Both the position numbers and the translations under genes were made by a program. 64,000 nucleotides of DNA from a virus. A model generated the notes under the pieces. That model did no database searches. It was not told the DNA's origin and saw only the letters and a program-made list of their open reading frames with translations. Positions 7,994-32,348 of this stretch are shown here, piece by piece; positions within the stretch are counted from its first letter, which is position 1, and the number at the start of each line of letters is the position of its first letter. The stretch covers positions 1 through 64,000 of the IMG/VR virus record IMGVR_UViG_3300034152_000814; one strand, written 5' to 3'.

Positions 7994-8335
7994 TTACGCT
8001 TCGTAAAAGCGAAGAGCGGGATAGCCCCTTATCCCGCAAGGGTTTACTTCACTCACTTCACACACTTTACCGTTTCAAATCGCCAGGAAGTACGTGACGA
8101 TATGCTCACGCACTTCCTGGTAACTTTTTTATATAAAGTGTGTGAAGTGTGTGAAGTAAGTATATACAGTAGTTATAGTTATCTCTCTCTTTACTATAAA
8201 GTAAAGTAAAGTAACGAAGTAAATATAAGGGGTGTATGTAGTTAGCGCCCACTTCTATTTTAGCAGGAAGTTAGGTCTCTTACCGTCGGAAGCTCGAACT
8301 CGCACTTCCGGGCTCCGGTGCGGTAGAATCGAGGC

Positions 8336-8530
8336 ATGGCGCGGATATGGTCGGCTCACCGCTGCGACCGCTGCGGGCTGACGGGCCTGGCGGTCGGCGA
8401 CGCGGCGCTGCCCCCGGGCTGGGAGGCGGCTGCCGTGGGCGACGCGCGCCGCGACCTCTGCGCGAACTGCGCGGCGAAGGTCTCGCGGGCGTTGACCGAT
8501 CCGCCAAGTACTGGTACAATAACCATCTAA
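8336..8530 (+). CDS. small Cys-containing protein
   Basis: CDRCG ... CANC pairs. Confidence 0.4.
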   Translation: MARIWSAHRCDRCGLTGLAVGDAALPPGWEAAAVGDARRDLCANCAAKVSRALTDPPSTGTITI

Positions 8531-8558
8531 GGCGTGACGCCGACGCGAGGAGACCGAG

Positions 8559-9017
8559 ATGGCGGCTCGTAGCATACTGGCCAAGAAGAAGTTAGAGACC
8601 TTCCTGAAGTCCCTGGCATTCACCGGGGAGAAGATCAACTCGGCCGACGCGGCGGGGATCCCTTGGAGCACGCTGGAGAAGCGGATCGCGCGCGACCCGG
8701 GTCTGAGGGGCCGAGTCGACGAGGCGATGTCCCGCTTCCACGAGAGGATCGAGAGCACGGTGCGCGGCCGGGGGATCGAGGGTTGGGAGGAGCCGGTCTT
8801 CTGGCAGGGCGAGGTCGTGGGGCACGTTCGGAAGTACTCGGACCGGTGCCTCGAGATGCTGGCGAAGCGCCACATCGCGGAGTACCGGGACAAGATGCGG
8901 ATCGACGCCTCCGTCCAGGGGGGCGTCCTCGTCGTTGGTGGAATGATGGACGAGGACGAGTGGGTCGAGACGTACGGTGGTAAGCAAGCTGACGAAGACG
9001 AAGGGAGTCAGGAATGA
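8559..9017 (+). CDS. putative terminase small subunit / HTH protein
   Basis: 152 aa with acidic C-terminus; position upstream of terL. Confidence 0.45.
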   Translation: MAARSILAKKKLETFLKSLAFTGEKINSADAAGIPWSTLEKRIARDPGLRGRVDEAMSRFHERIESTVRGRGIEGWEEPVFWQGEVVGHVRKYSDRCLEMLAKRHIAEYRDKMRIDASVQGGVLVVGGMMDEDEWVETYGGKQADEDEGSQE

Positions 9018-13341: not shown

Positions 13342-14830
13342 GAAAGACCCGAAGCTGGATCCGTCGACGGTCAGCGCGGCCTACGCCGCGTCGGAAGCGT
13401 ACTGGGCGCAGGTGTCCACCATCCTCGACGGGACGGAGGCGATGCGGACTGCCGGCGAGCGGTACTTGCCGCAGCACACGAACGAGAAGGAGCAGCGGTA
13501 CCTCGAGCGGCTCGAGTCCGCCGTCCTCTACAACGCTACGGAGCTCACGCTGGAGAGCTGGGTAGGGCGACCGTTCTCGGATCCGATCAACGTCGGCGAG
13601 GACGTTCCGGACGAGGTGCAGGCGTACCTCGAGGACGTCGACCTCCAGGGGAACGCCGCGGGCGTGTTCGCCCGTAACTGGTTCCGGGAGGGGTTGGCGA
13701 AGGGGCTCGCGCACGTCCTCGTGGATTTCCCGGCGATGGAGGACGAGGAGGTAAGCGTCCGCTCCAGGGCGGACGACCTGCGGGAGAACCGCCGGCCCTA
13801 CTGGTGCTTCGTGCAACCCGAGAACCTGATCTTCGCCTCCGCCGTCGTGGAGAACGGTCGGGAGGTCCTGACGCACGTCCGGATCAAGGAGACGGAGGTC
13901 TCGCGCGTCGGGTTCTGCGAGGAGATCGAGCACCGGATCCGTATCTGGGACAGGATCCTCCCGGGCGAAATGCCGGACCGCCCGGAGTTGGCTGGTCTCG
14001 AGCCGGGCGTCTACGTCTCCCTCTGGGCCCTGCGGCGGGCAGGGAAGAGCAGGAGGGCGGAATGGGAGCTGGTCGAGAACCCGCGGCTCGTGGGGATCCC
14101 CGAGATCCCGCTGGTGACGTTCTACGCGCACCGCGAGGAACTCATGAAGGGGAGGAGCCCTCTCGAGGGGTTGGTCGACCTGAACATCCGGCACTGGCAG
14201 AGCCTCTCGGACCAGATCAACATCCTCACGGCGGGACGGTTCCCGCTGCTCGCGTTGAGCGGTGGCAGCGAGGAGGATTCCATCATCACGATCGGGCCGT
14301 GGAAGGTGCTCTTCACGCCGGACCCGAAGGGGAAGTTCTACTACGTGGAGCACTCCGGGGCGGCGATCGGGGCCGGCCGGGACGACCTGCAGGACCTCGA
14401 GGAGAAGATGGCGGCCTACGGGGCGGATTTCCTGCGCAAGAAACCCGGTTCCCTGACGGCGACAGCCAGGGCCCTCGATTCCGCGGAGGCTACCTCCCCC
14501 CTCCAGGACGCCGTGATCATCTTCAACGACGCGCTCTCACGAGTCATGGAGTACATGGCGATGTGGGAGGGACGGGACGAACTCGGGACGATCTCGGTGA
14601 GCTCCGACTTCGGGCCCGAGGAGTTCGTGAGGGGCGACGTCGACGCGATCAAGGAGGCCCGGAAGCTGCGCGACCTGAGCCGGCGGCGGTTCCTCGAGGA
14701 GCTCAAGCGGCGCGGTGCGCTGGCGGACGAGTTCGACTTCGACGAGAACGATCGGGAGCTGGAGGACGAGACGGGCGAGATCGGCGGGGAGGCTATCTCG
14801 GGAGACATTGATCCGGAGGCAGAGGAATGA
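13334..14830 (+). CDS. portal protein
   Basis: 498 aa directly after terL; acidic C-terminal tail. Confidence 0.75.
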   Translation: MPKKDPKLDPSTVSAAYAASEAYWAQVSTILDGTEAMRTAGERYLPQHTNEKEQRYLERLESAVLYNATELTLESWVGRPFSDPINVGEDVPDEVQAYLEDVDLQGNAAGVFARNWFREGLAKGLAHVLVDFPAMEDEEVSVRSRADDLRENRRPYWCFVQPENLIFASAVVENGREVLTHVRIKETEVSRVGFCEEIEHRIRIWDRILPGEMPDRPELAGLEPGVYVSLWALRRAGKSRRAEWELVENPRLVGIPEIPLVTFYAHREELMKGRSPLEGLVDLNIRHWQSLSDQINILTAGRFPLLALSGGSEEDSIITIGPWKVLFTPDPKGKFYYVEHSGAAIGAGRDDLQDLEEKMAAYGADFLRKKPGSLTATARALDSAEATSPLQDAVIIFNDALSRVMEYMAMWEGRDELGTISVSSDFGPEEFVRGDVDAIKEARKLRDLSRRRFLEELKRRGALADEFDFDENDRELEDETGEIGGEAISGDIDPEAEE

Positions 14831-14881: not shown

Positions 14882-15451
14882 ATGGAAGGCGCGTTCGGCT
14901 GGATCGGCGAGCTATTCGCCTGGTTCGTCTCGCTGCTCCCGCACCTGGACCTCTGCCGCGTGACGCACCGCGGGCTCAAGTTCAAGCGCGGCGGGAAGGT
15001 GAGGGTGATCGAACCGGGGCTCTACTGGTGGTGGCCGTGCGTGACCGAGGTCGTCACCATGCCGGTCGTCCGGCAATCGGTAGATATTCCAGCGCAAACA
15101 CTTACGACGAAAGACGGCTACTCCATACTAATTTCGATGACATTAGTGTACGAGATCACGGACGTCGAGAAGGCGCTGGCGCAGAGCTACGACGTCGACG
15201 ACACGATCACGGAGTTCGGTGGGACCGCCGCCGTGCAGGTCGTGACGTCGAGGAAGTTCGACGAAGTACGAGAGGCACTGTCGACCGTGGTACCGAAGGA
15301 GCTCAAGAGGCGGTGCCAGAAGGCGTTGTATCCGTTCGGCGTGAAGGTAATCATGGCTCGCCTCACCGACTTCGCCGAGTGCACCGTGATCCGGAATGTC
15401 GGCGACGGCGGCGTGCTGCCGGTCGTCAGCAGCAGCGGGGATGACGAATGA
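14882..15451 (+). CDS. SPFH/band-7 (stomatin/prohibitin-like) domain protein
   Basis: VDIPAQTLTTKDGYSILISMTLVYEITDVEKA matches the stomatin core; N-terminal hydrophobic segment. Confidence 0.65.
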   Translation: MEGAFGWIGELFAWFVSLLPHLDLCRVTHRGLKFKRGGKVRVIEPGLYWWWPCVTEVVTMPVVRQSVDIPAQTLTTKDGYSILISMTLVYEITDVEKALAQSYDVDDTITEFGGTAAVQVVTSRKFDEVREALSTVVPKELKRRCQKALYPFGVKVIMARLTDFAECTVIRNVGDGGVLPVVSSSGDDE

Positions 15452-15625: not shown

Positions 15626-16822
15626 ATGGCGACCGCGAATCAAGAGTACTTCGACGCGGCCCTGCGCCACCACATCCACGTGAGGCGGTGGGCGACGGGC
15701 GAGGTGCGTCGGGCCCTGGAGCTCCTCGAGGACGTGGACCGGGACGTCGTCCGCCGGCTCCGACGGGGGCTCCCCAACGTCGGCTCGTGGCAGACGAAGC
15801 GGTTCAACGCCCTCCTCGAGAGGATCCGGGACATGCGAGGGGCGGCGATCGCGGAGCTTCACCGGAGGACGAGGGACGACCTCAAGGAGTTCGCCGGCAT
15901 CGAAGCCTCCCTGGAGTCGCGGATCCTCGGGGCGGCGATCCCCATCGAGATCGACCTCCTCGGCGTTCCCGCGGCGAAGCTGCGGAAGATCGTCACGGCC
16001 GAGCCGCTCCGGGGGCGCCACCTGCGGACCTGGTTCGCGGACCTGGCGCGGGAGGACCGTCGTCGGGTGGAGGACGCCCTGCGGATCGGGATGGTCGAGG
16101 GGGAGAGCGTGCCGGCCATGGTACGCCGGATCGCGGGGACGCGCGCCCAGAACTTCCGGGACGGCGTCCTGTCGATCACGCGCCGGAACGCGGAGACCGT
16201 CGTCCGGACCGCGGTGAACCATACCTCGAACCGAGCCCGGGAGGAGATGTGGACCGCGAACGAGGACGTAATCCTCGGCTACAGGTGGACTTCGACGCTC
16301 GACGGACGGACGTCGGCGATCTGCCGGGCCCGGGACGGGCACGTCGCGCCGGTGGAGGGGAAGCCCATTCCCGAGGATTTCATTCTCCTCCAGCCCCCGG
16401 GAGCGAGGCCGCCGGCGCACCCGAATTGCCGGTCGATCATGGTGGCGATCCTCGACCCGGACGGGGTCGTGGGCGAGCGGCCATTCGTCGTGGACACGAG
16501 GACCCGGGCGCGCCGTGAGGTGGACTTCCGTCGCATGGCCCGGGAGACGGGGCGCCCCATCCGGGAGATCCGCAGCGAGTGGGCGGCCGAGGCGGTGGGT
16601 CGCGTTCCAGCGAAAACTACGTATAATCAATGGTTGCGGCGACAGTCCGCGGCGTTCCAGGACGACGTCCTGGGACGGACGAAGGGACGGCTATTCAGGC
16701 GTGGCGAGCTGGAGATGGACGCGTTCGTTGACCGCTCCGGCCGTGAACTCACCCTCGCGGAGCTCGCCGATTCGAGACCGGAGGCGTTCCTGTTGGCCGG
16801 GCTGGACCCGGCGGAGTTCTGA
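15626..16822 (+). CDS. head morphogenesis protein (SPP1 gp7 / Mu F family)
   Basis: HPNCRS motif; position after portal. Confidence 0.8.
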   Translation: MATANQEYFDAALRHHIHVRRWATGEVRRALELLEDVDRDVVRRLRRGLPNVGSWQTKRFNALLERIRDMRGAAIAELHRRTRDDLKEFAGIEASLESRILGAAIPIEIDLLGVPAAKLRKIVTAEPLRGRHLRTWFADLAREDRRRVEDALRIGMVEGESVPAMVRRIAGTRAQNFRDGVLSITRRNAETVVRTAVNHTSNRAREEMWTANEDVILGYRWTSTLDGRTSAICRARDGHVAPVEGKPIPEDFILLQPPGARPPAHPNCRSIMVAILDPDGVVGERPFVVDTRTRARREVDFRRMARETGRPIREIRSEWAAEAVGRVPAKTTYNQWLRRQSAAFQDDVLGRTKGRLFRRGELEMDAFVDRSGRELTLAELADSRPEAFLLAGLDPAEF

Positions 16823-17187: not shown

Positions 17188-17982
17188 ATGAAGTTCAATT
17201 TCGCTCAGAACACGGAAGTCGACGCGCTGGACGTGGTGCCGGAGGAGTTCCGGCCGCTGTACGCCGAGAAGGAGGCTGGCGGCTACGCGCTCAAGACGGA
17301 GGACGAGACCGTCAAGGGCGCGGTGGCGGCGATCCTCGGGCTGAACAAGGCCCTCGTGGCGAGCAGGGCGGAGGCCAAGGAGGCCAAGTCCCGGACCGTA
17401 GACCTGAGCGCCCTGAGCGACTACGGCGAGAGCGTCGACGAGATCGCGGCCGGCGTCCAGACCAAGCTCGAGGAGCTGGAGACCCAGGTCGCTGGCGGCA
17501 AGAAGGCGAAGCTCGACCTCGACAAGGTGCGGGCGGACCTCGGCGCGGCCCACGCCAAGCAGATGGAAGCGGTGAACAAGAAGAACGAGGCGCTGACCTC
17601 TCAGCTCCATACCCTCTTGATCACCAACGATTTACGCGCCGCGATCGGCGATCGGGCGATCAACGCGGACCTCGTCCTGCCGTTCGCCGAGCGCCAGATG
17701 CGGGTCGTCGACGAGGACGGCACGCTGAAGGCGTACGTCGTCAACCCGGACGGCACGCAGCGCTTCTCGGGCGTGACGGCGCAGCCGATGACCGGCAAGG
17801 AGCTGATCGAGGAGATGGCGGTCTCCGAGGCGTACGCGCCCCTGTTCCGGAGCAACAAGCCGGATGGCGGCGGGACGCCCCCGGGGAGCCCCGGACGACG
17901 GTCCCAGAACCGCCCGACCGAGGAGCTCAGCGCGAACGAGAAGATCGCCCGCGGGCTCGCCGCGCGGGAGCGGACCAGATAA
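17188..17982 (+). CDS. capsid scaffolding protein
   Basis: Ala/Glu/Lys-rich coiled-coil; position immediately before the major capsid gene. Confidence 0.7.
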   Translation: MKFNFAQNTEVDALDVVPEEFRPLYAEKEAGGYALKTEDETVKGAVAAILGLNKALVASRAEAKEAKSRTVDLSALSDYGESVDEIAAGVQTKLEELETQVAGGKKAKLDLDKVRADLGAAHAKQMEAVNKKNEALTSQLHTLLITNDLRAAIGDRAINADLVLPFAERQMRVVDEDGTLKAYVVNPDGTQRFSGVTAQPMTGKELIEEMAVSEAYAPLFRSNKPDGGGTPPGSPGRRSQNRPTEELSANEKIARGLAARERTR

Positions 17983-18130: not shown

Positions 18131-19087
18131 ATGGCCAGTGTGACTCTCACGGAATCGGCGAAGCTCGCTCAGGACGACCTGGTGGCCGGTGTCATCGAGA
18201 ACATCGTCACCGTGAACCGCATGTTCGAGCTCCTGCCGTTCGACGGCGTCGAGGGCAACGCTCTCAAGTACAATCGAGAGAACGTCCTCGGCGGGGCCGG
18301 TGTGGCCGGCGTCGGCGACACCATTTCCAGCGACGCCTACGACCCGATCCTCGCCGCGAACAACGCCAAGGATCCGGCGACCTTCACCTCGGTGACGGCC
18401 AGCCTGACCACGATCCTCGGTGACGCCGAGGTCAACGGTCTGATCCAGGCGACCCGCAGCGGTGACGGGAACGACCAGAAGGCGGTCCAGATCGCCAGCA
18501 AGGCCAAGAAGTGCGGGCGGATCTACCAGGACATGCTGATCAACGGCACGGGCGCCGCCGATCAGTTCGACGGGCTGATCAACCTCTGCCCGGTGGGGCA
18601 GATGGTGGATACCGGTGCGACCGGTTCGGCCCTGTCCTTCGCGATCCTGGACGAGCTGCTCGACCTGGTCGTCGACAAGGACGGACAGGTGGACTACATC
18701 GCCATGCACGCGCGGACGATCCGCTCCTTCAAGGAGCTCCTGCGCGGACTCGGCGGTGCCGGCATCGGGGACGTCGTGGAGCTGCCCTCGGGCGCCCGCG
18801 TGCTCTCGTACTCCGGGGTTCCCATCCTCCGGAACGACTGGATTCCGGTCAACCAGACGAAGGGTGGGACGCCGAACTGCACCACGATCTTCGCGGGCAC
18901 GTTCGACGACGGTTCCCGGAGTCACGGCATCGCTGGCCTGACGGCCGAGCGGAAGGCCGGGATCAAGGTCGTGGAGGTCGGCGAGCACCAGGATCGCGAC
19001 GAGTCGATCACCCGCCTGACGTGGTACTGCGGCCTCGCGCTCTTCAGCGAGCTCGGGATCGCGTGCGCGGACGGCATCACGGACTGA
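18131..19087 (+). CDS. major capsid protein (HK97 fold)
   Basis: 318 aa; strong RBS gtaggaggtacg; followed by a strong terminator. Confidence 0.85.
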   Translation: MASVTLTESAKLAQDDLVAGVIENIVTVNRMFELLPFDGVEGNALKYNRENVLGGAGVAGVGDTISSDAYDPILAANNAKDPATFTSVTASLTTILGDAEVNGLIQATRSGDGNDQKAVQIASKAKKCGRIYQDMLINGTGAADQFDGLINLCPVGQMVDTGATGSALSFAILDELLDLVVDKDGQVDYIAMHARTIRSFKELLRGLGGAGIGDVVELPSGARVLSYSGVPILRNDWIPVNQTKGGTPNCTTIFAGTFDDGSRSHGIAGLTAERKAGIKVVEVGEHQDRDESITRLTWYCGLALFSELGIACADGITD

Positions 19088-19097
19088 GTCAGGGGGC

Positions 19098-19134
19098 GAG
19101 GGCGGGGGTCGGGAGCGGCTCCCGCCCTTTTCCG
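19098..19134 (+). terminator. rho-independent terminator
   Basis: GGGCGGGGGTCGGGAGC-g-GCTCCCGCCC followed by TTTTCC. Confidence 0.65.
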
Positions 19135-19153
19135 TAACTGAGAAAGGAGCGAC

Positions 19154-19972
19154 ATGGCTCTCTACCTCGTTGAGAAGGAAGACGCCTCCGGTCGGAACGA
19201 CATCGAAGGCGTGAAGGCAATCGTCCTCGAGGCCGACGACGAGGCCACGGCGAAGGAGCTGGCGGCGGCGCGCGTCGAGGGTGACTCGGCTTGGAGCGCC
19301 GCGACGGTCACCGAGATCGCCGCCGGCGTCGCCGCGGACTTCGAGGGGTTCACGTACCGCCTCAAGATCGGGCCGGATCCGACTGGGAGCGAGTACAAGA
19401 ACATCATCGACCTCTCGGAGACGGTCGCGGCCGGCGTCGAGGGGGCTCAGGCGGCAGTGATCGTCGCCGGTGGAACGGGCTACGACGTTGGCGACATCCT
19501 GGAGGTCCAGGGTGGAACCTCGACGGCTCCGGCTCGTCTCGAGGTGACGTCCGAGACCGGGAACGTGATCGACGGCATCAAGGTCATCGACCCCGGACAG
19601 TACAGCGAGACGCCCGCCGATCCCGTCGCCGTGACGGGGGGCAACGGCAACGACGACGCCACGTTCAACATCACGTGGGAGGAGTCGACCCCCGTGGTGG
19701 CCGGTGGCGCCCTCGTCGAGGCCCTGAACGCGGAGCTGGCCATCGCCGGCGCCAAGTTCGAGCCGGCGACGCTCCTGCTCACCGCCGCGGCGGGCAGTGG
19801 TGTGGACGACCTCGGGGACCATACGCTGGTTCTGGAGGTCACGTCTCCGGACGCCGTGCGACCGTTGACCGTGCTCGTCGGTACGATCACCGACAAGGGC
19901 CTCGCGACTGACGACCTGTCGGTCGAGCTCGTAGTTCCCACGGCTGTCCCCGCGATCATGCGGGCACTGTGA
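19154..19972 (+). CDS. capsid decoration / Ig-like-domain protein
   Basis: RBS gagaaaggagcg; contains the GGTGYDVGD..NITWEE module that is also repeated in tail gene 32348. Confidence 0.6.
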   Translation: MALYLVEKEDASGRNDIEGVKAIVLEADDEATAKELAAARVEGDSAWSAATVTEIAAGVAADFEGFTYRLKIGPDPTGSEYKNIIDLSETVAAGVEGAQAAVIVAGGTGYDVGDILEVQGGTSTAPARLEVTSETGNVIDGIKVIDPGQYSETPADPVAVTGGNGNDDATFNITWEESTPVVAGGALVEALNAELAIAGAKFEPATLLLTAAAGSGVDDLGDHTLVLEVTSPDAVRPLTVLVGTITDKGLATDDLSVELVVPTAVPAIMRAL

Positions 19973-19975
19973 GAG

Positions 19976-20268
19976 ATGGCGCTCTACCTGCTCGAGCGCA
20001 GTGGTGGAGGGGCGGAGGCCCTCATCGACGGGGTTCGCTCGTTGGTCCTCGAGGCCACGGCGAAGGAGCTGGCCTCCGCCCTCTACCACGGTGACAGCTC
20101 GTGGAGCGACGCCTCGGTGACGGAGCTCGTCGCGGGAACGGCTGCCGACTACGCGGGGTGGCCAGTGGTGGGGAGTTCATTCCGTCGCCACACCAGCCCG
20201 AGCTCGACGTCTCGGTCACGGGCGGTGTGGAACCCACCGCGATCCCGGTCATCATTCGAGCCATCTGA
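19976..20268 (+). pseudogene. internally deleted, frameshifted tandem paralogue of gene 19154 (or a -1 frameshifted product)
   Basis: N-terminus MALYLLERSGG...AADYAG in frame 2; C-terminus GEFIPSPHQPELDVSVTGGVEPTAIPVIIRAI in frame 1 resembles the C-terminus of gene 19154; junction near 20158. Confidence 0.45.
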
Positions 20269-20283
20269 GAAGGGAGGCTGACC

Positions 20284-20631: not shown

Positions 20632-21138
20632 ATGAGACTGACGCCGGCTACCGATGGGCGATCGCACACGTCCCTCGAGACGGGTCCGGGCGATCACCAC
20701 GCGGAGCCGGCGTCAGTCACTATTGACAACACGTCCCAATCCCTCCCCCCGGGGACCACGTTCGATCTCGACGTCGCGCTCCCGCACGACGGTTTTCAGG
20801 TCGCACGAATCCAGATCACGGGGCCCAAGACGATGCCGGCGTACGCCGGCAATTGGCGCGAGTGCGCGGAGATCGTCGCTACCACGGATTCGGCTGAGGC
20901 CATGGGGCACAGCGTCCGGGAGGCGGGGACCAGGAAGGTGTACGCATCGACGTACTCGAAGCAGAACGCGGACGCGTACCTGAGTCACAAGATATTCGAC
21001 GACAATACCGGCAGCGGGAACCGGTACATCGCGGTGCAGGACGTCGCCATCGTGGGGGCGGTCCTGCGGATCACGTTCCGGAACTTCTTCGGCGGCTCGG
21101 CGACCCTCTGGGTGAAGGGGCAAGCCCTGCTGTGGTGA
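20632..21138 (+). CDS. structural-module protein, paralogue 1 of 3 (MRL...HH N-terminus)
   Basis: 168 aa; ATGA coupling. Confidence 0.55.
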   Translation: MRLTPATDGRSHTSLETGPGDHHAEPASVTIDNTSQSLPPGTTFDLDVALPHDGFQVARIQITGPKTMPAYAGNWRECAEIVATTDSAEAMGHSVREAGTRKVYASTYSKQNADAYLSHKIFDDNTGSGNRYIAVQDVAIVGAVLRITFRNFFGGSATLWVKGQALLW

Positions 21139-21142
21139 CGAC

Positions 21143-21628
21143 ATGCGACTCGGTGGACGACGGATCGTCGCGACGCACGACGCGCTCCTCGACGTCGGGG
21201 AGGAGGATCACCACCCGCGCGCCACGTCGTTCTCGATCCTGATCAATTCCCAAGCCATCCCGGCCGGTTCCGCGTGGGAGTACCGCGTGGACCTCGGCGA
21301 CGACCGGCACCGAACCCTCCGGGCGGTTCTCCGAGGGAACCAGAACGTCGACATCCAGGGACATACCGGCGTCTTCGTGCTCGGCTCGGATTCGTCCGGG
21401 CAGTGCAGCGGGATAGGGATCAAGCCGTACGGCTCGGGCTACGTGACGAGCTACATGGGTGGCTACTCCAGGATCCACGGGGACTCGTACCTGACGCCGC
21501 CGATGTTCGGTGGCGGGATCCGCCTGCGGGATGCGTACATCGACGGGACCGACGCGGTCCTGGAGTTCTTCAACCCGGCGGTGATTCAACGGTTCATGTC
21601 GTGCTACGGAGCGGTCGCGGTAAAATGA
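21143..21628 (+). CDS. structural-module protein, paralogue 2 of 3
   Basis: 161 aa; MRLGGRRIVATHDALLDVGEEDHH. Confidence 0.55.
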   Translation: MRLGGRRIVATHDALLDVGEEDHHPRATSFSILINSQAIPAGSAWEYRVDLGDDRHRTLRAVLRGNQNVDIQGHTGVFVLGSDSSGQCSGIGIKPYGSGYVTSYMGGYSRIHGDSYLTPPMFGGGIRLRDAYIDGTDAVLEFFNPAVIQRFMSCYGAVAVK

Positions 21629-22146
21629 GGTTGCAAGACTACCTACGACATCCGATCGCGCACGGTTCACTCGTGGGCGTGCTGCCGAACCAGCACCACG
21701 AACGCCCGGAGAACATCGAGGTCGCGAACACGACCCTCTCCGTCTTCCCGCTTCCCGGAGGACCCAGCGTTTGGGATATACCAGTGCCGTACGAGGCGCA
21801 GGTCGTGATCTTCTCGTTCCGCAGCAACCACACGTGTTCGGAAGGAGCCGGCAAGGCGGGCGTGACGGGCGTCGCGACGCGCAGCCAGTTCGATGCGTCA
21901 ACGGTTTCCACCGGTGGGCACGGCACCATTTCCACAAGTGCCTACAACGCGGTATACTCGAAGAGGGCCGCGGCGATGAACCTGTCGCACAAGGTCTTCT
22001 CGTCGGTTGGTTCGTACATAAGTTTAACGGAAATATATCTTTACGAAACGGCCCCTCTGACCCGCGTCCTCCGGACGGAGTGGACGAACTACGGGGCGGC
22101 GTTGTATACGCTGAATTGCTGGGGCGAGGTAGCGGTGCTGAAGTGA
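21625..22146 (+). CDS. structural-module protein, paralogue 3 of 3
   Basis: 173 aa; MRLQDYLRHPIAHGSLVGVLPNQHH. Confidence 0.55.
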   Translation: MRLQDYLRHPIAHGSLVGVLPNQHHERPENIEVANTTLSVFPLPGGPSVWDIPVPYEAQVVIFSFRSNHTCSEGAGKAGVTGVATRSQFDASTVSTGGHGTISTSAYNAVYSKRAAAMNLSHKVFSSVGSYISLTEIYLYETAPLTRVLRTEWTNYGAALYTLNCWGEVAVLK

Positions 22147-23390
22147 GCGACAAGCTACGGGTACTCGCGATTTGCCAGGAGGATCCGGAGTGGATCCTCG
22201 GGGGCATGGGGCGCCACGTCCGGGAGCTCTACCGCGCCATGGCGGAGCGCGGCGACGTCGAGATTGACCTCCTCGTCGGCGGGCCCGGGGAGGAGCCCAC
22301 GGAGTACCTCGGCTGTACGAAGCACGTCGCGGACAAGCTCGTCTGTTGGAAGCCACGCGTGCCGAACATGTCGAGTCTCCTGATCGCGGATCTCCAGCTC
22401 ACGAAGACGCTCGCCAAGCTGCTCGCCCAGGGGCAGACGTGGGACGTGATCCACGTCCACGAGTGGAACGCGCTCCAGGTGGCCAGGGTGGCGCGCGACG
22501 CCCTGGGGGTACCGGTGGTCGGTACCATGCACCTATGCATCACGGAGCTGATGCGGCAGGACGCGACGCCGGACGGACGGTACGGCGAGGCGGACATCTA
22601 CCTGATGCAGCAGGAGGGCCACCTCGTTGTGGATTCCGACGAGCTGATCCTCTGCTCCCAGTCGTACGTGGACCTGGTCCGCAACCTCTTCATGACGGAC
22701 CGCCCTATCAATTTGATCCACAACGGGATCCGTCCGTCGGAGTGGCGACGGGACGAGGCGGCGGGACGGCGGGCCCGGGAGGAGTTCGACCTACCGGACA
22801 GGCCGATCGCGCTCTTCGTCGGGCGGATCGCTGATATGAAAGGGATCCGGGAGCTCCTCGACGCCGTGCGCCGGTGGGACTCGGGCTACTGCGTCGTGGT
22901 GGCCGGCGAGATCAACGCGAACACGGACGACGAGAAGGAGCGGTGGGTAGTTACGCGCAAGTTACGTGATACCGTCAAGAAATATCCTGACCGCATGCGG
23001 TGGGTCGGTTTCCAGCACGACGACAAGCTCCGAGGACTGTACTCCGCGGCGGAGGTCGGGCTCGTCCCGTCGCTCCACGAGCCGTTCGGGATCGTGGCGC
23101 TGGAGCACATGGCGATGGGGGTTCCCCTCGTCACGACGGAGGTCGACGGGCTCGGGGAGATCGTCGTGGACGGGGAGGGGAACGAGTTCTCCCTGATCGT
23201 CGAGCCCGGCAAGAGCGGGCAGATTCACCGGGCGTTGAAGTTCCTGCGGAACCACCCGGAGGCGCGAGAGGAGCTGGCGGAGCTGGGGCGGCTCCGCGTC
23301 CTCGATTTCGATTGGCACGCCGCGGCGGCTGCCACGGTGGAGGTATACAGGAAGGTGGTGCGCGATGTCGCTGCAACTCGTCAATCCTAA
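22143..23390 (+). CDS. GT4-family (GT-B fold) glycosyltransferase
   Basis: EPFGIVALEHMAMGVPLVTTEVDGLGEIV (E-x7-E motif); GTGA coupling. Confidence 0.85.
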   Translation: MSDKLRVLAICQEDPEWILGGMGRHVRELYRAMAERGDVEIDLLVGGPGEEPTEYLGCTKHVADKLVCWKPRVPNMSSLLIADLQLTKTLAKLLAQGQTWDVIHVHEWNALQVARVARDALGVPVVGTMHLCITELMRQDATPDGRYGEADIYLMQQEGHLVVDSDELILCSQSYVDLVRNLFMTDRPINLIHNGIRPSEWRRDEAAGRRAREEFDLPDRPIALFVGRIADMKGIRELLDAVRRWDSGYCVVVAGEINANTDDEKERWVVTRKLRDTVKKYPDRMRWVGFQHDDKLRGLYSAAEVGLVPSLHEPFGIVALEHMAMGVPLVTTEVDGLGEIVVDGEGNEFSLIVEPGKSGQIHRALKFLRNHPEAREELAELGRLRVLDFDWHAAAAATVEVYRKVVRDVAATRQS

Positions 23391-23856
23391 GCAGGCGGTG
23401 CAACTGGACCGCGTCCGGATCGCTTGCATCAAGATCGAGTACAACCCCTACAAGGGCCAGACGTGGGTGGAATTCTGGTTGACGATCGGGCGGCTGGCCG
23501 TGCCGGGCAATGAGGCGTCATTCCAGCAGCACATCGATCCGGACACGGGCGAGGAGGTCTTTGCGTACCTCAAGATCGAGAACGGGATGAACCCGTTCCG
23601 CGGCGGAACGATGCTCGGTAAGTGTGGGACGTGCGGGAAGTGGTTCGCGCTCGTATCCGGATCGTGCGACGCGGACGGTTGCGACGGCACGATTGGACCG
23701 TACGACGGCTTCACTCGTTTGATGACGGCGACTGCTTCGGCCGGGACGATCTTCGACGCGATCGCGAACATCGCGTACTCGTTCCTCTGCACCGAGCAGG
23801 TGCCGGACCCGGACACGTGGGAGATCAAGAGGCTCCTGGAGGCGAACCTTGGATGA
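23365..23856 (+). CDS. hypothetical protein with Cys cluster
   Basis: GKCGTCGKW ... GSCDADGCDG. Confidence 0.5.
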   Translation: MSLQLVNPKQAVQLDRVRIACIKIEYNPYKGQTWVEFWLTIGRLAVPGNEASFQQHIDPDTGEEVFAYLKIENGMNPFRGGTMLGKCGTCGKWFALVSGSCDADGCDGTIGPYDGFTRLMTATASAGTIFDAIANIAYSFLCTEQVPDPDTWEIKRLLEANLG

Positions 23857-24682
23857 CACGAGGATACAGACTGGCGCGACGGAGCGCGTCGAGGTACTGG
23901 TCCTCGACGCCGCCCTCGACCCGCTCACGGGCAAGACGGACATCCTGCTCTCGATTCGCCGCGTGAGCGACGGGCAGTGGTTCGACTTCGCGGACCTCAC
24001 TTTCAAGGCCGCGGGCTGGACGACTCGCCAGCAGCAGATGACGGAGACGGACGTCACGAACGACCCGGGGGTCTACCATTACGACTTTGTTACGTCGACG
24101 ATCGCGAACCCGACGGCGGACGACACGTACGAGATGCGCGCTGACCAGTCGCCCGGGACGGACGCGGCGAACTTGCCGCAGACCGGGGAGCTGAAGGTTG
24201 GGCAGTTCGTCGATGACATCGACCAGGCAATCTCCACGATGGAGGTGAATATCCGGGGCGGGGCGGGCGACACGTTGGAGACGCTCTCGAATCAGCTCGA
24301 TCTCGTGGCGCTCGAGGCGAACGTCGAGGGGCACGTGACGGACGGGCTGACCGCGCAGGGCTACACGTCCGTCCGGGCCCTCCTGCTCGACAACCTGGAC
24401 GCGGCCGTGAGCGCCATTCTTACCGCGATCGCGGCGCTGAACGACGTAAGTATAGCGGACGTCGAGACGGCGATGGGTAATCAAGGCTATACTACCGCCA
24501 GGGCGGCATATTTGGACGACCTGGTGACGATCCTCGCGGCGGTGGAGAAGGTCAGGAAGGTGACCTCGAACCGGGTAGTCGTGAACGCGGCGGACACGCT
24601 CGTCACGATCTACGAGGACGACGGCTCGACGCCGGCCTTCACCTTCACGATCAGCGGCGATCGCCGGGAAAGGACGCCCTGA
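23849..24682 (+). CDS. virion-associated protein (head fibre-like)
   Basis: 277 aa; Thr/Asp-rich. Confidence 0.5.
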   Translation: MDDTRIQTGATERVEVLVLDAALDPLTGKTDILLSIRRVSDGQWFDFADLTFKAAGWTTRQQQMTETDVTNDPGVYHYDFVTSTIANPTADDTYEMRADQSPGTDAANLPQTGELKVGQFVDDIDQAISTMEVNIRGGAGDTLETLSNQLDLVALEANVEGHVTDGLTAQGYTSVRALLLDNLDAAVSAILTAIAALNDVSIADVETAMGNQGYTTARAAYLDDLVTILAAVEKVRKVTSNRVVVNAADTLVTIYEDDGSTPAFTFTISGDRRERTP

Positions 24683-24864
24683 TGGCCGATCCGATCAGCG
24701 TCTTTCCGGAATTCGTTCGGAACCAGGTCTACCCGCCGACACCGACGGCGCCCGTCGTGGGACCCATCACCGCGACGGTCTCGGATCCCGGGCTGACCGT
24801 CACGGTGACGGAGGAGACGATCGTCGTTACAATAGAACCGGAGGAGCTGGACGCGGGAGTGTAA
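24682..24864 (+). CDS. small hypothetical protein
   Basis: ATGG overlap coupling. Confidence 0.4.
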   Translation: MADPISVFPEFVRNQVYPPTPTAPVVGPITATVSDPGLTVTVTEETIVVTIEPEELDAGV

Positions 24865-24865
24865 C

Positions 24866-25213
24866 ATGGCGTGCCCTTCTGAGATCAACATCTGCCGCGT
24901 GCGCGGCGACACGTACCCCTTCACGGTTACCGTGAAGGATGGCGACGGAAACCCAATCAACATAACTGCTTACGGATTCCTCCTGACCGTGGACCCGGCG
25001 CCGGACCCGCCGGACGCTTCGGAGAACTTGCTCCAGCTCGCCGGCGTGATCCTGGACGGTCCGAACGGGATCGTCCAATTCCAGCCGAGCGCGCTGGACG
25101 CGGACCAGGAGCCGGACACGTACTACTACGACCTCCAGATGGAGGACGGCTCCGGTGACTTCCGGACGATCCTGAAGGGGACGTTCACGATCTCGCAGGA
25201 CATCACGAAGTGA
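24866..25213 (+). CDS. Ig-like / beta-sandwich structural protein
   Basis: GDTYPFTVTVKDGDGNPINIT ... GTFTI. Confidence 0.5.
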   Translation: MACPSEINICRVRGDTYPFTVTVKDGDGNPINITAYGFLLTVDPAPDPPDASENLLQLAGVILDGPNGIVQFQPSALDADQEPDTYYYDLQMEDGSGDFRTILKGTFTISQDITK

Positions 25214-25220
25214 GGGTGAC

Positions 25221-25736
25221 ATGGCATTCTCGGTACAGGACGACGGCGGCACGATCGACGGCGCCAACGCGTACATAACTGTCGATGAGTTCAAGACGTA
25301 CCACCGAGACCGCGGGAACTCGTGGAGCGGTGGTAGCGGTGCGATCCAGGACGCCATCGTGGTCGCTACGGACTACCTCGACACGCGCTTCCAGTTCGTC
25401 GGGGACCGGAAGAGCGTGAGCCAGCGGACGCAGTGGCCCCGCGTCGACGCGATAGATCGTGACGGCAACGCCCGCTCCGGCGTACCGGTCGAGGTCGAGG
25501 AAGCCTGCGCCGAGTACGCCTTGATCGCGCTGAGCTCCACGCTCAACCCGACGCCGACGCGGGACGACACGGGCCAGCCGGTGGAGATGAGTCGGAAGAA
25601 GGTCGGGCCCCTGGAGAAGGAGATCCGGTACGGCGGGGGCGGGGCCGTCTTCCAGCTCCCGAAGTACCCGATCGCGGATCAGAAGCTCCGCGCCGCGGGC
25701 CTCGTGGTCAGCGGGCGCGACATCGTGAGGGGCTGA
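25221..25736 (+). CDS. head-tail connector (gp6-like adaptor)
   Basis: ANAYITVDEFKTYHRDRG N-terminal signature. Confidence 0.55.
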   Translation: MAFSVQDDGGTIDGANAYITVDEFKTYHRDRGNSWSGGSGAIQDAIVVATDYLDTRFQFVGDRKSVSQRTQWPRVDAIDRDGNARSGVPVEVEEACAEYALIALSSTLNPTPTRDDTGQPVEMSRKKVGPLEKEIRYGGGGAVFQLPKYPIADQKLRAAGLVVSGRDIVRG

Positions 25737-25737
25737 G

Positions 25738-26112
25738 GTGGGCTACTACGACGACGAGATCGCGACCGCCCTCGAGCTCATCGCGGAGTTCGGGGAGACG
25801 TCGACGCTCCGGCGGACGGAGCCCGGGGACCCTCCGGACACGGATCAACCCTGGCGAACCGGGGCTCCCACGCCGGCGGACCACTCGGTCTCCGCGGTAT
25901 GGCTCGACTGGGAGGTCGACCGGATCGACGGCGAGCTGATCAAGGCGGGGGACCAACGGGTCTTCGTCGCTGCCTCCGGGATGACGGTGACGCCGTCCCC
26001 CACGGTGGATCGGATCCTCCGGGCGAGCGGCGAGGAATGGACCATCGTCACGGTGCGAACACTCAACCCCAACGGGGAAACCATCTTGCATGAATTGCAG
26101 GTGAGGAAGTGA
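25738..26112 (+). CDS. head-tail joining protein
   Basis: synteny; GTG start. Confidence 0.45.
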   Translation: MGYYDDEIATALELIAEFGETSTLRRTEPGDPPDTDQPWRTGAPTPADHSVSAVWLDWEVDRIDGELIKAGDQRVFVAASGMTVTPSPTVDRILRASGEEWTIVTVRTLNPNGETILHELQVRK

Positions 26113-26113
26113 T

Positions 26114-26569
26114 ATGGCGGCGGACTTGACGACGGCGAAGAACGAGATGTTCAGCGCCTTCAAGGTGGCGTGGGACGCGAATACGCCCGGCGTGACGCCC
26201 GACGGCAGCGTTCCCTACGTGTACTGGGACGGCGTTCCGGACGACACGCCGCCGCCGCCGGACGCACCGTACGCTCGGATCCGGATCCGGCACGGACCTT
26301 CGGAGCAGGCCAGCCTCGCGGGCGCCGTGGGGTCGCGGAGGTTCGAGCGTTTCGGTACAATTACGGTACAGGTGTTCACGCCCTTGTCGGCGACCGACCC
26401 TCCCACGCTCGGGGAGAACCTGGCGGCGATCGCCAGGGCGGCCTACGAGGGGCAGAGCACCGCGAGCCAGGTATGGTTCAGGAACGTGCGGGCGAACGAG
26501 ATCGGCGAGGACGGGCCCTGGTACCAGTGGAACGTCGTGGCCGAATTTCGGTACGACGAGCTGGTCTGA
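26114..26569 (+). CDS. tail terminator / neck protein
   Basis: [28 protein letters not shown]. Confidence 0.5.
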
Positions 26570-26582
26570 AGGAGGTACGACA

Positions 26583-28121
26583 GTGGCGCAGCTACAGAAG
26601 ATCGATTCCAATGTGACCGGGCTCCGCTACGCTGAGGAGCTGAGCCTGGGCGTGCTCCCGGGGTCCCCCGTCTGGACGCCCCTGGAGCCGAACTCCTACG
26701 CCGATTTCGGCGGGGAGATCTCCACCATCGCGAGGAACCCCATCAACCCCTCGCGACAACGGAAGAAGGGAACCACGACGGACCTCGACGCGTCCGGCGG
26801 GTTCAACACGGACATCACGCAGGAGAACCTCCAGGACATCCTCCAGGGGTTCTTCTTCGCGGATCTCCGCGTGAAGGCCGAGGTCGGCGGATCCAGCGAG
26901 ATCACGAACGTCGACGGGACGACCGAGGAGTACGAGGCCGCGGCCGGCCTGGACGTCTTCGAGGTCGGCGACCTGGTCCACGCCAGCGGCTTCACGAACG
27001 CCGCGAACAACGGGCTCAAGCGCGTGACGACGGTCTCCGCGACGGACCTCGCGGTGGCCGAGGACCTGGTCGACGAGACGCCGCCGGCAGCCGCGAAGCT
27101 CGTGGCCGTGGGATTCCAGTTCGACGCGGGCGACGCGGACATCGACACCTCGGGCTCCCTGCCGGCGCTCACGACCACCACGAAGGACCTCACGGAGCTC
27201 GGGGCTACCCCCGGCGAGTGGGTGTTCCTCGGTGGGGACACGGCCGCGGTGCAGTTCGCGAACTCGGAGAACAACGGCTTCGCGCGCGTCCGGAGCGTCA
27301 CCGCGGACACGATGACGTTCGACAAGACGGCGTCGACGATGGTCCCGGAAACCACGACGACCGAGACGATCCAGATCTTCGTCGGTCGGGTGCTCAAGAA
27401 CGAGACCGGGACGCTGATCACGCGCCGGACGTACCAGCTCGAGCGGACGCTCGGTGCGCCGGACGACGCGGCTCCCGCGGACATCCAGGCGGAGTACCTG
27501 GTCGGCGCCGTGCCGAACGAGCTGACCATGAACATCGCCACGGCCGACAAGCTCCACGCCGACCTCTCCTTCGTGGGGATCGACGTCGAGCAGATCGACG
27601 CCGCGACGGCCCTGAAGACCGGCTCGAGGCCAGCCATCGCCGAGGCGGATCCGTTCAACACGTCGAGCGACTTCAGCCGGATCAAGATGGCGGAGGTGAG
27701 CGACACGGACGCCGCGCCGACGCCGCTCCTCGCGTTCCTCCAGGAGCTCACGATCACGCTCTCGAACAACGCGAGCCCGAACAAGGCGGTCGGGACCCTC
27801 GGGGCGTTCGAGGTGACCGCCGGCACGTTCCAGATCGGCGGATCGATGACGGCGTACTTCTCGGACATCGCCGCGGTGCAGGCCGTCCGGAACAACGCCG
27901 ACGTGACGATCGACGCTCACCTGGTGAAGCAGAACGCGGGGATCTCCATCGACATCCCGCTGCTGTCCCTGGGCGACGGGCGACCGAGCGTGGAGCAGGA
28001 CGAACCCATCACGCTGCCTCTGTCCATGGACGCGGCGACCGGGGCGAAGATCGATACGAACCTCGATCACACGCTCCTGATGGTGTTCTTCGACTACCTA
28101 CCGGATCTCGCAGACGTCTGA
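26583..28121 (+). CDS. major tail protein
   Basis: 512 aa; sits between terminator and chaperone; Thr/Ala-rich. Confidence 0.6.
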
Positions 28122-29396: not shown

Positions 29397-32348
29397 GTGG
29401 CGCGCGAACGACTGATCATCGAGGTCACGGAGAGCGGGACGCGCGTCGTCCAGCGCCGGCTCGGCGGGATCGGGCGGGCGGCCACGGGCGCTACGTCCCA
29501 GGTCAACCTCCTGCGGCGGGCCCTGACGTTCGTTGGTGGAGCCCTCGTCCTGCGGGAGAGCGTCCGGACGCTGGCGAACTTCTCGCAGGCCATGAGCACC
29601 GTCAAGGCCGTCTCCGGGGCGACGGCGGACGAGTTCGCGGAGCTCCGCGACGTGGCGCGCGACCTCGGAGCCACGACCCGCTTCTCCGCGACCCAGGCGG
29701 CGGAGGGGATGGTCCTCCTGGCGCGCGCCGGCTTTGAGGTGGCGGAGACCATGGAGGCGACCGGGGACGTCCTCCTGCTCGCCCAGGCCGGCGGGCTCGA
29801 CCTCGCCTCGGCCGCAGACGTGGCGGCGAGCACCCTCCGGGGCTTCAGGCTCGAGACGGACCAAGCGTCGCGCGTGGCGGACGTCCTGGCCGCCGCCGCG
29901 AACAGCGCGAACACCAACGTAGCCGAGCTCGGGGAAGCCCTGAAGCTCGTGGCGCCGATCTCCGCGGGTTTGGGGGTCTCCCTCGAGGAGACGACCGCGG
30001 CGATCAACACGCTGTCCGACGCCGGTCTGAAGGGCACCCTCGCGGGGACGGGCCTCCGGCGCGTGCTGGCGGAACTGGAGAGCCCCAGCCAGCGGACCCA
30101 GAAGATCTTCCGGCAGCTCGGGATCGAGGCGGAGGACGTCCGGATCTCCCAGGTCGGGTTGACCCAGGCGCTCAAGACCCTCGCCGAGGCCGGCGTCGAT
30201 ACCGGCCTCGCCCTGGAGATCTTCCAGCAGCGCGGCGGTCCCGCCTTCGAGGTCCTGGCGAACGCCATCCCGAAGGTCGAGGGCATGACTGAGAGGCTCC
30301 GTGAGTCGGAGGGCACGGCACGCCGAGTTGCGGAGATCATGGACGACAACCTGAACGGCGCCCTCCTCCGGGTGCGGTCGGCGATCGAGGCGGTCCTCCT
30401 GTCCATAGGCGACGCCGATACGGCGATGGGGAAGGTCCTCGTGAAGGCGGTGAACTCCCTCGCGACCGGGATCCGGTTCCTCGCGCAGCACACGGGGGTC
30501 CTCGCTGGGGTCCTGGCTGGGATCGCGGTAACCCAGCTCCCGCTGGTGATCTCCGGCGTGCGGAAGCTCTTCGTCCTGATCGCGACGCACCCGTTCGGCG
30601 CGCTGGCGCTCGCCCTCGGGGTGGTGATCGGGTACCTCGTCGAGTTCCAGGACGAGATCCAGATCTCCCAGGACGGCGTCGCCACGCTGAGGGACCTCTT
30701 CGCCGAGGTCGGCGCGGTCCTGAAGGAGACCTTCGCCGGCGCCCTCCAGATCTTCCGAGAGGTCTTCGGTGGACTCAAGGCGGAAGCCCAGGGTGCGGTC
30801 GGCGACGTGAACCTCTCGCTCCGGAGCGTCGCGGACACGGTGGCGCTCGTCTACGACTCCTTCGTGGGTTTCTTCACGGGGGTATTCACGACGATTCGGA
30901 CGGTCTTCTCGAAGCTCCCCGCGGCGATCGGGGATTACTTCGTCCAGGCGGTGAACCTGGCGATCTTCGCGATCGAGGACCTGGTGGATACCACGATCGA
31001 AGGGATCAATGAGGTGATCAAGCTGGGGACCGACGCGATCAACGCGGTCCGGATAGCCCTCGGCAAGGAGGCGATCTCGATCGACGCCTACACGATCGAT
31101 CCAGTGGATCTCGGACGCGTGAAGAACTCGTGGGCGAACGCCGGCACGGAGCTCGGCGATTCGATCCGGGAGGGCTGGAAGATCTCCTTCGAGAAGGCTA
31201 CCGGCGGGCGGGATTTCGTCGAGCGCGTGTTCCGCGGTGCCGAGGCCCGGGCGGAATCCCGCAGACTCGGTGAGGAGATGGCCGCGGAGGTCGTCGCTGG
31301 CATGGGAATTGCAATGGGGTACCTCCCGGGGCTCGGGGAGTTCCAACGGGAGACGGCTCCGGCAGCGACGGCACCGGGCGCTCCGGGCAGGGACCGAGAA
31401 GTGGAGTCCGCAGAGCGGCTCTCCCGGGCGATCGACCAGGTCAACGCCGCGCTCGAGGAGGAACGGCGGATCCTCTCGGTCACCGGGCAGGACCGGCGGA
31501 TCGTGACGGACCTGATCGCGATCGAGAACCAGCTCCGGAAGGACGGGATCGACCTCAAGGCGGAGGACACGCAGCTCCAGCTCGCGTCCGTCGAGGCGCA
31601 GCTCGCGGACCTGGACGTCCTCCGGGCGAAGGCGGACCTGCTCGAGCAGATCAAGGGGCCCGAGGAGGAGCGGCGGTTACAGCTCGAGGCGCTGAACCAG
31701 CTCCTCGCCGATGGCACGATCAACCAGGACCAGTACAACCAGATGGTCGCGCAGCTCGGCCTGAATTCCGAGCAGACGGCTACGCAGCTCCAGCAGTTCG
31801 TGGACAAGCTGAAGGGCGCGAAGCAGCAGTCGGAGCAGCTCGGCGCGGCGATCGGCGACGCGCTCGTCAAGGCGATCGACAGCGCGTCGGACGCGCTCGC
31901 CGACTTCGCCCTGTCGGGCTTCCAGAACACGAAGGACCTCAAGAAGGCGTTCTCCGACCTGTTCGCGTCGCTCGCGAAGGACATCCTGAAGGCGATCATC
32001 AAGATGCTCCTCTTCAGGGCGATCTTCGGGGCGATCGGCGGGGCGGCGGGCGGTGGTGGAGGTGCTGCCGCAGGTGGCGGGGTTCCCGGTTTGCAGGCCG
32101 GCGGTCCCGTCCACCGCGGCGCCCCCGTGATCGTCGGCGAGCAGGGGCGGGAACTCTTCGTTCCACCGTCGCAAGGAAATATCGTCCCGGCGAGCCAGGC
32201 CGCGGCGCCCCCGGAGGTGAACGTCTCCGTCGTCAACGTGACGGATCCGGAGGAGGTCACCGCGGCGATGGGCTCCGCCGAGGGCGAGCAGGTGATCCTC
32301 AACGTGATTCAGAAGAATCGGCACGCGATCGGGAGGTCGTTGGTCTGA
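29397..32348 (+). CDS. tape measure protein
   Basis: 983 aa, Ala/Gly/Leu-rich, C-terminal GG-rich region, canonical position. Confidence 0.9.
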   Translation: MARERLIIEVTESGTRVVQRRLGGIGRAATGATSQVNLLRRALTFVGGALVLRESVRTLANFSQAMSTVKAVSGATADEFAELRDVARDLGATTRFSATQAAEGMVLLARAGFEVAETMEATGDVLLLAQAGGLDLASAADVAASTLRGFRLETDQASRVADVLAAAANSANTNVAELGEALKLVAPISAGLGVSLEETTAAINTLSDAGLKGTLAGTGLRRVLAELESPSQRTQKIFRQLGIEAEDVRISQVGLTQALKTLAEAGVDTGLALEIFQQRGGPAFEVLANAIPKVEGMTERLRESEGTARRVAEIMDDNLNGALLRVRSAIEAVLLSIGDADTAMGKVLVKAVNSLATGIRFLAQHTGVLAGVLAGIAVTQLPLVISGVRKLFVLIATHPFGALALALGVVIGYLVEFQDEIQISQDGVATLRDLFAEVGAVLKETFAGALQIFREVFGGLKAEAQGAVGDVNLSLRSVADTVALVYDSFVGFFTGVFTTIRTVFSKLPAAIGDYFVQAVNLAIFAIEDLVDTTIEGINEVIKLGTDAINAVRIALGKEAISIDAYTIDPVDLGRVKNSWANAGTELGDSIREGWKISFEKATGGRDFVERVFRGAEARAESRRLGEEMAAEVVAGMGIAMGYLPGLGEFQRETAPAATAPGAPGRDREVESAERLSRAIDQVNAALEEERRILSVTGQDRRIVTDLIAIENQLRKDGIDLKAEDTQLQLASVEAQLADLDVLRAKADLLEQIKGPEEERRLQLEALNQLLADGTINQDQYNQMVAQLGLNSEQTATQLQQFVDKLKGAKQQSEQLGAAIGDALVKAIDSASDALADFALSGFQNTKDLKKAFSDLFASLAKDILKAIIKMLLFRAIFGAIGGAAGGGGGAAAGGGVPGLQAGGPVHRGAPVIVGEQGRELFVPPSQGNIVPASQAAAPPEVNVSVVNVTDPEEVTAAMGSAEGEQVILNVIQKNRHAIGRSLV

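Follow-up and report, generated by a model that had tools for sequence, protein, structure and literature searches.

The GT4 enzymes GtfA/GtfB are the dedicated glycosyltransferases of bacterial serine-rich repeat adhesins, and the long tail fibre of phage T4 (gp34-37) is a multi-gene fibre module with HxH metal sites. To our knowledge, experiments have demonstrated the glycosylation of virions by phage enzymes in no more than a few actinobacteriophages. Described cases are the mycobacteriophages Che8, Corndog and Myrna (Freeman et al., 2023, Cell Host Microbe 31:1216, as cited in PMC11256854 and PMC12619734). The subject of this analysis is a glycosyltransferase (GT) gene at positions 22143-23390 of a 64,000-nucleotide stretch of viral DNA (IMG/VR record IMGVR_UViG_3300034152_000814, positions 1 to 64,000), the whole of which is called the window. 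The gene is the fourth of a fixed cassette of six genes, A-B-C-GT-E-F, and not a lone insert among head genes, and this cassette transfers between unrelated phages as one unit. With moderate confidence, the GT is read as the dedicated enzyme of a mobile accessory-fibre cassette, glycosylating one or more of the cassette proteins. The cassette genes and the catalytic motif of the GT are located in the window as follows:

20632-21138, + strand: cassette protein A (168 aa), a predicted mini-fibre whose N-terminus is a shaft repeat (H..DHH) and whose C-terminus is a beta-sandwich knob
21143-21628, + strand: cassette protein B (161 aa), a paralogue of A
21625-22146, + strand: cassette protein C (173 aa), a paralogue of A and B, with an ATG start in an ATGA overlap with the stop of B
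22143-23390, + strand: GT4 (GT-B) glycosyltransferase gene, cassette position 4 (415 aa, GTG start, stop-free open reading frame, ORF)
23079-23105, + strand: EX7E motif inside the GT (H312-E313-PFGIVAL-E321; HEPFGIVALE), from the translation
23365-23856, + strand: cassette protein E (163 aa), with four invariant cysteines
23849-24682, + strand: cassette protein F (277 aa), a putative fibre protein with a TTG start

The partners of the GT were found by tblastn of the window proteins against IMG/VR loci encoding a related GT, followed by a wider scan and contig look-ups. The order A-B-C-GT-E-F is identical in all 39 retrieved loci in which the GT reaches 42% identity or more to that of the window, with gaps at contig ends alone; B is found at the same position in every locus not cut by a contig end, and E lies always directly 3' of the GT (tblastn). 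In 29 other loci, where the GT is at most 38% identical (nearly all at most 30%), tblastn detected no cassette gene. Among the 185,579 species genomes of GTDB, a close GT occurs in two contigs of metagenome-assembled genomes alone, with identity falling from 58% to 25% for the next match, and these two contigs (83 and 100 kb) look like whole phage contigs that were binned by chance. A tblastn comparison with 50,697 GenBank phage records gave no match for C, E and F, and just six generic GT4 matches of at most 33% identity for the GT, none of them from actinobacteriophages.

The 39 loci fall into 17 groups without common flanking genes, and these backgrounds include siphovirus-like, myovirus-like and Mu-like portal types. 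The guanine-plus-cytosine (GC) content of the cassette loci ranges from 43 to 69%, and GT identity across these phages from 42 to 68%. For example, in one locus of 47% GC (L002) five cassette proteins are 52-74% identical to those of the window and E is 34% identical, and 0 of 18 other tested virion proteins of the window found a match. Strict linkage together with 17 unrelated backgrounds characterizes the cassette as a horizontally mobile unit and the GT as a dedicated part of it. Averaged across the cassettes, A, B and C are 52-57% and the GT is 55% identical to the window proteins, and GT identity correlates best with that of the N-domain of F (rho 0.64).

None of the five cassette proteins other than the GT has relatives in Pfam, PHROG or PDB, so that the cassette defines new protein families, and no membrane segment was found in any of the six. 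PADLOC gave no match for five of the six, including the GT, and for C an insignificant SIR2 match (E 0.005, 14 bits); as there is no credible match, the cassette is not a known defence system. Two alternative gene models in this region, of 290 aa from 21274 as a model for C and of 539 aa from a TTG at 21771, were dropped because they overlap B and C out of frame and the orthologues start at MRL, the C orthologue alignment beginning at ATG 21625. Variation of the cassette itself is seen in L033, L034 and either L019 or L037, three loci in which a conserved extra ORF of 62-68 aa separates C from the GT; the fourth locus among L019/L033/L034/L037 carries a similarly sized ORF there.

An earlier note on this DNA had described 22143-23390 as a GT-B/GT4 enzyme with an EX7E motif that is translationally coupled to its neighbours, a description which the analysis bears out. 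In Pfam, the C-terminal half (residues 216-383) matches Glycos_transf_1 (PF00534, 6e-26, 91.4 bits against a cut-off of 26.4), while residues 20-199, the N-terminal GT4-type Rossmann domain, match Glyco_trans_4_4 (PF13579, 1.6e-20, 74.4 bits) and also Glyco_transf_4 (PF13439, 4e-19, 69.6 bits); a PHROGs scan labels the ORF glycosyltransferase. The residues E313, E321, R228 and K233 are invariant in an alignment with 61 homologues. E313 and E321 are the two Glu residues of the EX7E motif and, by analogy with characterised GT4 enzymes, R228/K233 would be the Arg/Lys pair that binds the donor diphosphate, and as all four are invariant the enzyme looks catalytically competent and is predicted to be intact. 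Its GTG start overlaps the upstream TGA stop as GTGA, and its 3' end shares 26 nucleotides with the next ORF (start 23365). The start at 22143 is correct, as the alignments with homologues begin at residue 1-5 and conservation among these extends over the first 21 residues (RVLAICxEDPExILGG). The public gene call P0001 (394 aa) is too short, as it begins 21 codons late and omits window positions 22143-22205, which encode the conserved first beta-strand and the Gly-Gly loop of the GT-B fold.

The closest PDB sequences to the GT are those of GlgM (6tvp, 2e-22), MshA and archaeal GlgA, and the best NCBIfam model, glgA_Coryne/GlgM (TIGR02149), scores 137 bits against a cut-off of 302. The GT4-conflict model PF20706 reaches 51 bits, below the generic GT4 models, and neither a DUF1975 insertion nor a GtfB-like partner was detected with Pfam. 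As judged by its sequence, the GT belongs to CAZy GT4, a family of retaining GT-B enzymes, but to none of its named functional subfamilies.

The proteins A, B and C are ancient paralogues with 23-28% mutual identity, and each forms its own orthologous group; H12, H22, H23 and Y104 are invariant in the family (123 sequences). An AlphaFold2 model of A with a predicted local distance difference test (pLDDT) score of 92 consists of a ten-strand beta-sandwich after a 25-residue arm and resembles, by weak structure matches, beta-sandwiches of lectins and fibre knobs such as discoidin, Helix pomatia agglutinin and galectin. Foldseek comparison of A with viral models gave equally weak matches, enriched for tail-fibre, collagen-repeat and YadA-like proteins. 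A profile of the family, searched in 1.84 billion representatives, found remote relatives in which the beta-sandwich is always the extreme C-terminus of a longer protein (for example residues 722-845 of 853, 333-459 of 461 and 344-466 of 468), and these longer proteins carry classic tail-fibre motifs. Furthermore, the N-terminal H..DHH segment is a nine-fold shaft repeat in P0449, a fibre-like metagenomic protein of 1036 aa (...SHDNI.GV.ASDHHVRP...). The C-terminal position of the sandwich in the relatives, their tail-fibre motifs and the nine-fold repeat together characterize A, B and C as putative mini-fibres composed of a single shaft repeat and a knob. A metal may be bound at the invariant His-His pair, as happens in other phage fibres. 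The same profile found nothing meaningful among PDB sequences, and A, B and C match no PHROG or Pfam fibre family. An N-glycosylation sequon (N-T-S/T after the HH motif) was considered as a feature of the knobs and rejected, since paralogue B does not conserve it.

The model of F (pLDDT 91) begins with an Ig/macroglobulin-like domain, continues with helical repeats and ends in a small beta domain; residues 1-117 are the conserved N-domain and residues 121-240 a helical coiled coil with GYTxxRAxxLDxL repeats. Orthologues of F conserve the first approximately 125 residues and then diverge into repetitive regions, with lengths from 277 aa in the window to 1309 aa. A conserved N-terminus followed by a variable repetitive remainder is the usual architecture of fibres, which suggests that F is a fibre protein. 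Ten orthologues, including the longest, gave insignificant short-segment matches alone against PHROG, and long F found nothing meaningful among PDB sequences. In an alignment of five orthologues of E, the cysteines C87, C90, C101 and C106 are invariant, and E is likely a zinc-binding module; no relatives of it were detected outside the cassette. Two further relationships were rejected because the profile-profile comparisons were not significant, namely E as a diverged paralogue of A, B and C, and the N-domain of F as a relative of the adjacent phrog_1084 protein (24866-25213).

With respect to genomic position, the cassette lies between the head genes and the head-tail adaptor both in the siphovirus of the window and in an unrelated myovirus group with a tail sheath (L012 type). 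In another group (L020) it follows the baseplate wedge gene, the usual position of tail fibres, and in L008 it is flanked by a Mu-type portal and the protease. When 142 proteins encoded no more than four genes away from the cassette, taken from 26 loci, were compared with PHROG, the largest function-annotated families proved to be mostly structural, baseplate, head-tail adaptor and portal families, with 2-4 proteins per top family; two top families are unannotated, endolysin-domain families occur as well, and terminase, neck, tail and head families are represented by single or double matches. Two of the flanking proteins are nucleotide-sugar epimerases. In L010 a GalE/RmlD-like NAD-dependent nucleotide-sugar epimerase/reductase (positions 8090-9001 of that locus) is inserted between A and B, and in L014 a gene for a 316-aa epimerase/reductase lies immediately upstream of the cassette. 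The presence of such sugar-nucleotide enzymes at some cassettes hints that the donor sugar differs by lineage.

The window, with a GC content of approximately 65%, encodes a full head-to-tail module on the + strand:

11845-13341, + strand: TerL
13334-14830, + strand: portal
15626-16822, + strand: head morphogenesis protein
17188-17982, + strand: scaffold
18131-19087, + strand: major head protein
19154-19972, + strand: decoration-like protein (272 aa)
25221-25736, + strand: head-tail adaptor Ad1
25738-26112, + strand: Hc1
26114-26569, + strand: tail terminator
26583-28121, + strand: tail-tube-like protein (phrog_290, 512 aa)
29397-32348, + strand: tape measure

The nearest GenBank relatives of this phage are siphoviruses of Xanthomonas and Stenotrophomonas (Bradleyvirinae), the major head protein being 63% identical to its counterpart in Xanthomonas phage Bosa. 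Between the major head protein and Ad1, Bosa has two small genes, whereas the window has approximately 6 kb with eleven ORFs, and the cassette is not present in Bosa-type relatives. Matches to PHROGs and Pfam among these eleven ORFs are limited to the GT, the decoration-like protein and the phrog_1084 protein. The earlier note had placed the GT between capsid-accessory and connector genes. The wider frame is right, as the gene lies between the head and decoration-like genes (18131-19972) and Ad1 (25221-25736), but its immediate neighbours are the five uncharacterised genes of the cassette.

Several other features of the window were observed. Residues 1-66 of the decoration-like protein are duplicated (53% identity) at the start of the next ORF, 19976-20281 (101 aa), the rest of which is Ser/Arg/Pro-rich and looks like a degenerate remnant; a related locus (L003) has the same doubled match. 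The tail-tube-like protein has 512 aa compared to 313 aa in Bosa, and the approximately 200 extra residues are possibly a display domain. Directly 3' of the cassette, at 24682-25213, are two small ORFs of 60 aa and 115 aa (phrog_1084, Ig-like by sequence pattern), which are kept alongside the cassette solely in the closest relatives L003 and L004 and may be a lineage-specific link between the cassette and the virion. Between the portal and head morphogenesis genes, an unusual site, a protein of 189 aa (14882-15451) matches a PHROG annotated as lipoprotein (phrog_200, 1e-9). Elsewhere, 3382-4635 and 46058-46873 encode C5-cytosine (Dcm) and Dam-type N6-adenine DNA methylases, and other window genes encode a SNF2 helicase, a Pam3 gp34-like protein, PolA and a DUF5906 primase. 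A non-exhaustive check of the annotated window proteins revealed neither an integrase nor a repressor.

How the GT would act as the dedicated enzyme of the cassette can be outlined. The six genes would be co-transcribed and translationally coupled with the late virion genes, and during assembly in the cytoplasm the GT would transfer a sugar from a nucleotide-sugar donor to one or several cassette-encoded proteins, candidate acceptors being the knob proteins or the fibre F. The virion would thereby display an accessory fibre or adhesin that carries glycans. Two points are inferred here, a cassette protein as the acceptor and the virion as the location of the product. As the GT is inherited with its five partners and with no particular capsid, decoration or tail-tube family, the likeliest acceptor is a cassette-encoded fibre component; co-inheritance with fibre-type proteins, the late-operon context, the solubility of the components and the occasional sugar-nucleotide enzyme point to the GT as the maturation enzyme of a portable fibre. 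Some observations weigh against this assignment. The cassette is in no GenBank or cultured phage record. For protein E, searches of Pfam, PHROG, PADLOC, NCBIfam and PDB sequences gave no match. The knobs are as conserved as the GT across very different GC contents, which is unusual for receptor-binding tips. In L007 the recognisable neighbours of the cassette are, exceptionally, DNA methylases, a nuclease, a thymidylate synthase and a DNA polymerase, and the closest solved relatives of the GT (GlgM, MshA, GlgA) use sugar-phosphate or glucan acceptors and not proteins.

A different acceptor on the virion, or in the envelope of the host, is considered unlikely. Modification of the major virion proteins (capsid, decoration, tail tube) would create a glycan shield as in Che8, Corndog and Myrna, where glycans at capsid and tail-tube C-termini are documented (Freeman et al., 2023, as cited in PMC12619734 and PMC11256854), and would fit with a window cassette that follows the head and decoration-like genes and precedes the connector genes, as well as with the extra surface provided by a tail-tube-like protein longer than that of Bosa. 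Yet in 17 diverse backgrounds the constant companions of the GT are A, B, C, E and F and not a capsid or tail-tube family, and no specific similarity links it to the GTs in the GenBank phage records, which together make a shield less likely; besides, the GTs of Maravista (Che8-type) are situated near the 3' end of the genome, outside the structural operon, as stated in PMC11256854. Equally improbable appears a late alteration of a host envelope glycan (lipopolysaccharide (LPS) core, O-antigen, exopolysaccharide (EPS) or glycolipid), which could for example mask the receptor of the fibre and thereby spare progeny loss on debris or superinfection of cells. Most characterised GT4 enzymes in the NCBIfam list make LPS, EPS or glycolipids, serotype-changing phage GTs are known, and the linkage of a receptor-modifying enzyme to a receptor-binding protein would presumably explain their co-transfer. 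On the other hand, the cassette has neither membrane nor flippase partners nor membrane segments, the enzyme is GT4 and not GT2/Gtr-like, it is expressed from inside the virion operon, and the non-exhaustive check of the annotated window proteins points to neither integrase nor repressor. An envelope acceptor shared among the hosts is unlikely, as GTs of 42-68% identity occur in phages of 43-69% GC. The features of gtrABC-type seroconversion, namely a GT2 bactoprenol glucosyltransferase together with the flippase GtrA and the membrane protein GtrC at a site linked to lysogeny, are likewise absent, since the GT is GT4 and not GT2, is accompanied by no membrane protein and has late virion genes as neighbours, and among the loci it was never located in a lysogeny module. 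The preference of the earlier note for virion glycosylation over modification of host LPS consequently stands with respect to the late virion block, the lack of membrane partners and the distance to GT2/Gtr-like enzymes; its capsid, decoration and tail targets are not favoured.

Still less probable is that the GT makes a glycan bound by the lectin-like knobs A, B and C, so that the cassette would bring its own docking chemistry into any virion. Outside the cassette, no conserved virion partner exists for its conserved half, which comprises A, B, C, the GT, E and the N-domain of F, and self-docking would explain how this half works in unrelated virions; the resemblance of the A model to the discoidin, Helix pomatia agglutinin and galectin sandwiches and knobs conserved to the same degree as the GT would be in agreement with it. 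This proposal is, however, purely inferential and still requires an acceptor that is conserved across backgrounds. In a plug-in form, to which we assign a similarly small probability, the GT would glycosylate a cassette or virion protein and the knobs, possibly as an A:B:C heterotrimer formed via the His-His motifs, would bind the glycan. Glycosylation of phage DNA (a hypermodified base) or of a small metabolite, with the virion neighbourhood being coincidental, is very improbable. Phage GTs commonly glucosylate DNA, the L007 cassette is near DNA methylases and thymidylate synthase, and the closest solved relatives of the GT take small acceptors; however, tblastn with a thymidylate synthase query found no thymidylate synthase or hydroxymethylase homologue in the window, the Dcm and Dam methylases encoded there act on ordinary bases, and the invariant tie of the GT to fibre-type proteins would be left unexplained.

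If the GT does glycosylate the proteins of its cassette, virion glycosylation extends to a widespread cassette of uncultured phages whose relatives infect Gram-negative hosts, and the substrate class is specific, comprising accessory fibres rather than capsids in general. The unit is compact, with six genes in approximately 4 kb. Glycosylated fibres would bear on host recognition, on the protection of adhesins from proteases and antibodies and on phage surface engineering. If, instead, the glycan-and-lectin scheme were true, it would let one fibre dock on unrelated siphovirus and myovirus particles and spread among the phages of very different hosts.

Neither the GT4 fold nor the idea that phages glycosylate their virions is new; the six-gene cassette, its set of three paralogous knobs and their distribution appear undescribed, and full-text literature searches found no paper on the cassette. 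As in the mycobacteriophage system, a phage-encoded GT is thought to modify virion proteins in the cytoplasm and is accessory rather than core (PMC11256854 and PMC12619734). In the mycobacteriophages, according to the same sources, the acceptors are the C-termini of major capsid or tail-tube subunits, whereas the GT of the window is tied to a fibre cassette. The hosts of the former are actinobacteria, while the phage of the window is related to siphoviruses of Xanthomonas and Stenotrophomonas, and the tblastn search of GenBank phage records found no specific sequence relationship between the GT of the window and the mycobacteriophage GTs.

Most plausibly, by analogy and not by membership, the cassette works like the bacterial pairs of a dedicated GT and an adhesin. 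With GtfA/GtfB it shares the genetic linkage of a GT4 enzyme, soluble and cytoplasmic, to a surface protein of fibrillar, repeat-rich type that would be modified before export or assembly; in contrast to them, the candidate substrates are unrelated and the setting is a phage rather than an accessory Sec locus of a bacterium. GlgM, MshA and archaeal GlgA (GT4-GT5) give the best full-length sequence matches to the GT and have the GT-B fold, the EX7E motif and solubility in common with it, but its context is neither glycogen nor mycothiol metabolism and the phage clade is set off by the gap in identity from 58% to 25%. Like phage fibre modules, the cassette has a sandwich, that of A, B and C, which is found at the C-termini of long fibres, a histidine shaft repeat and, in F, a conserved N-terminus with a variable distal part. 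Unlike them, it encodes its knobs as three separate paralogous genes for proteins of approximately 165 aa and adds to the module an enzyme and a Cys4 protein.

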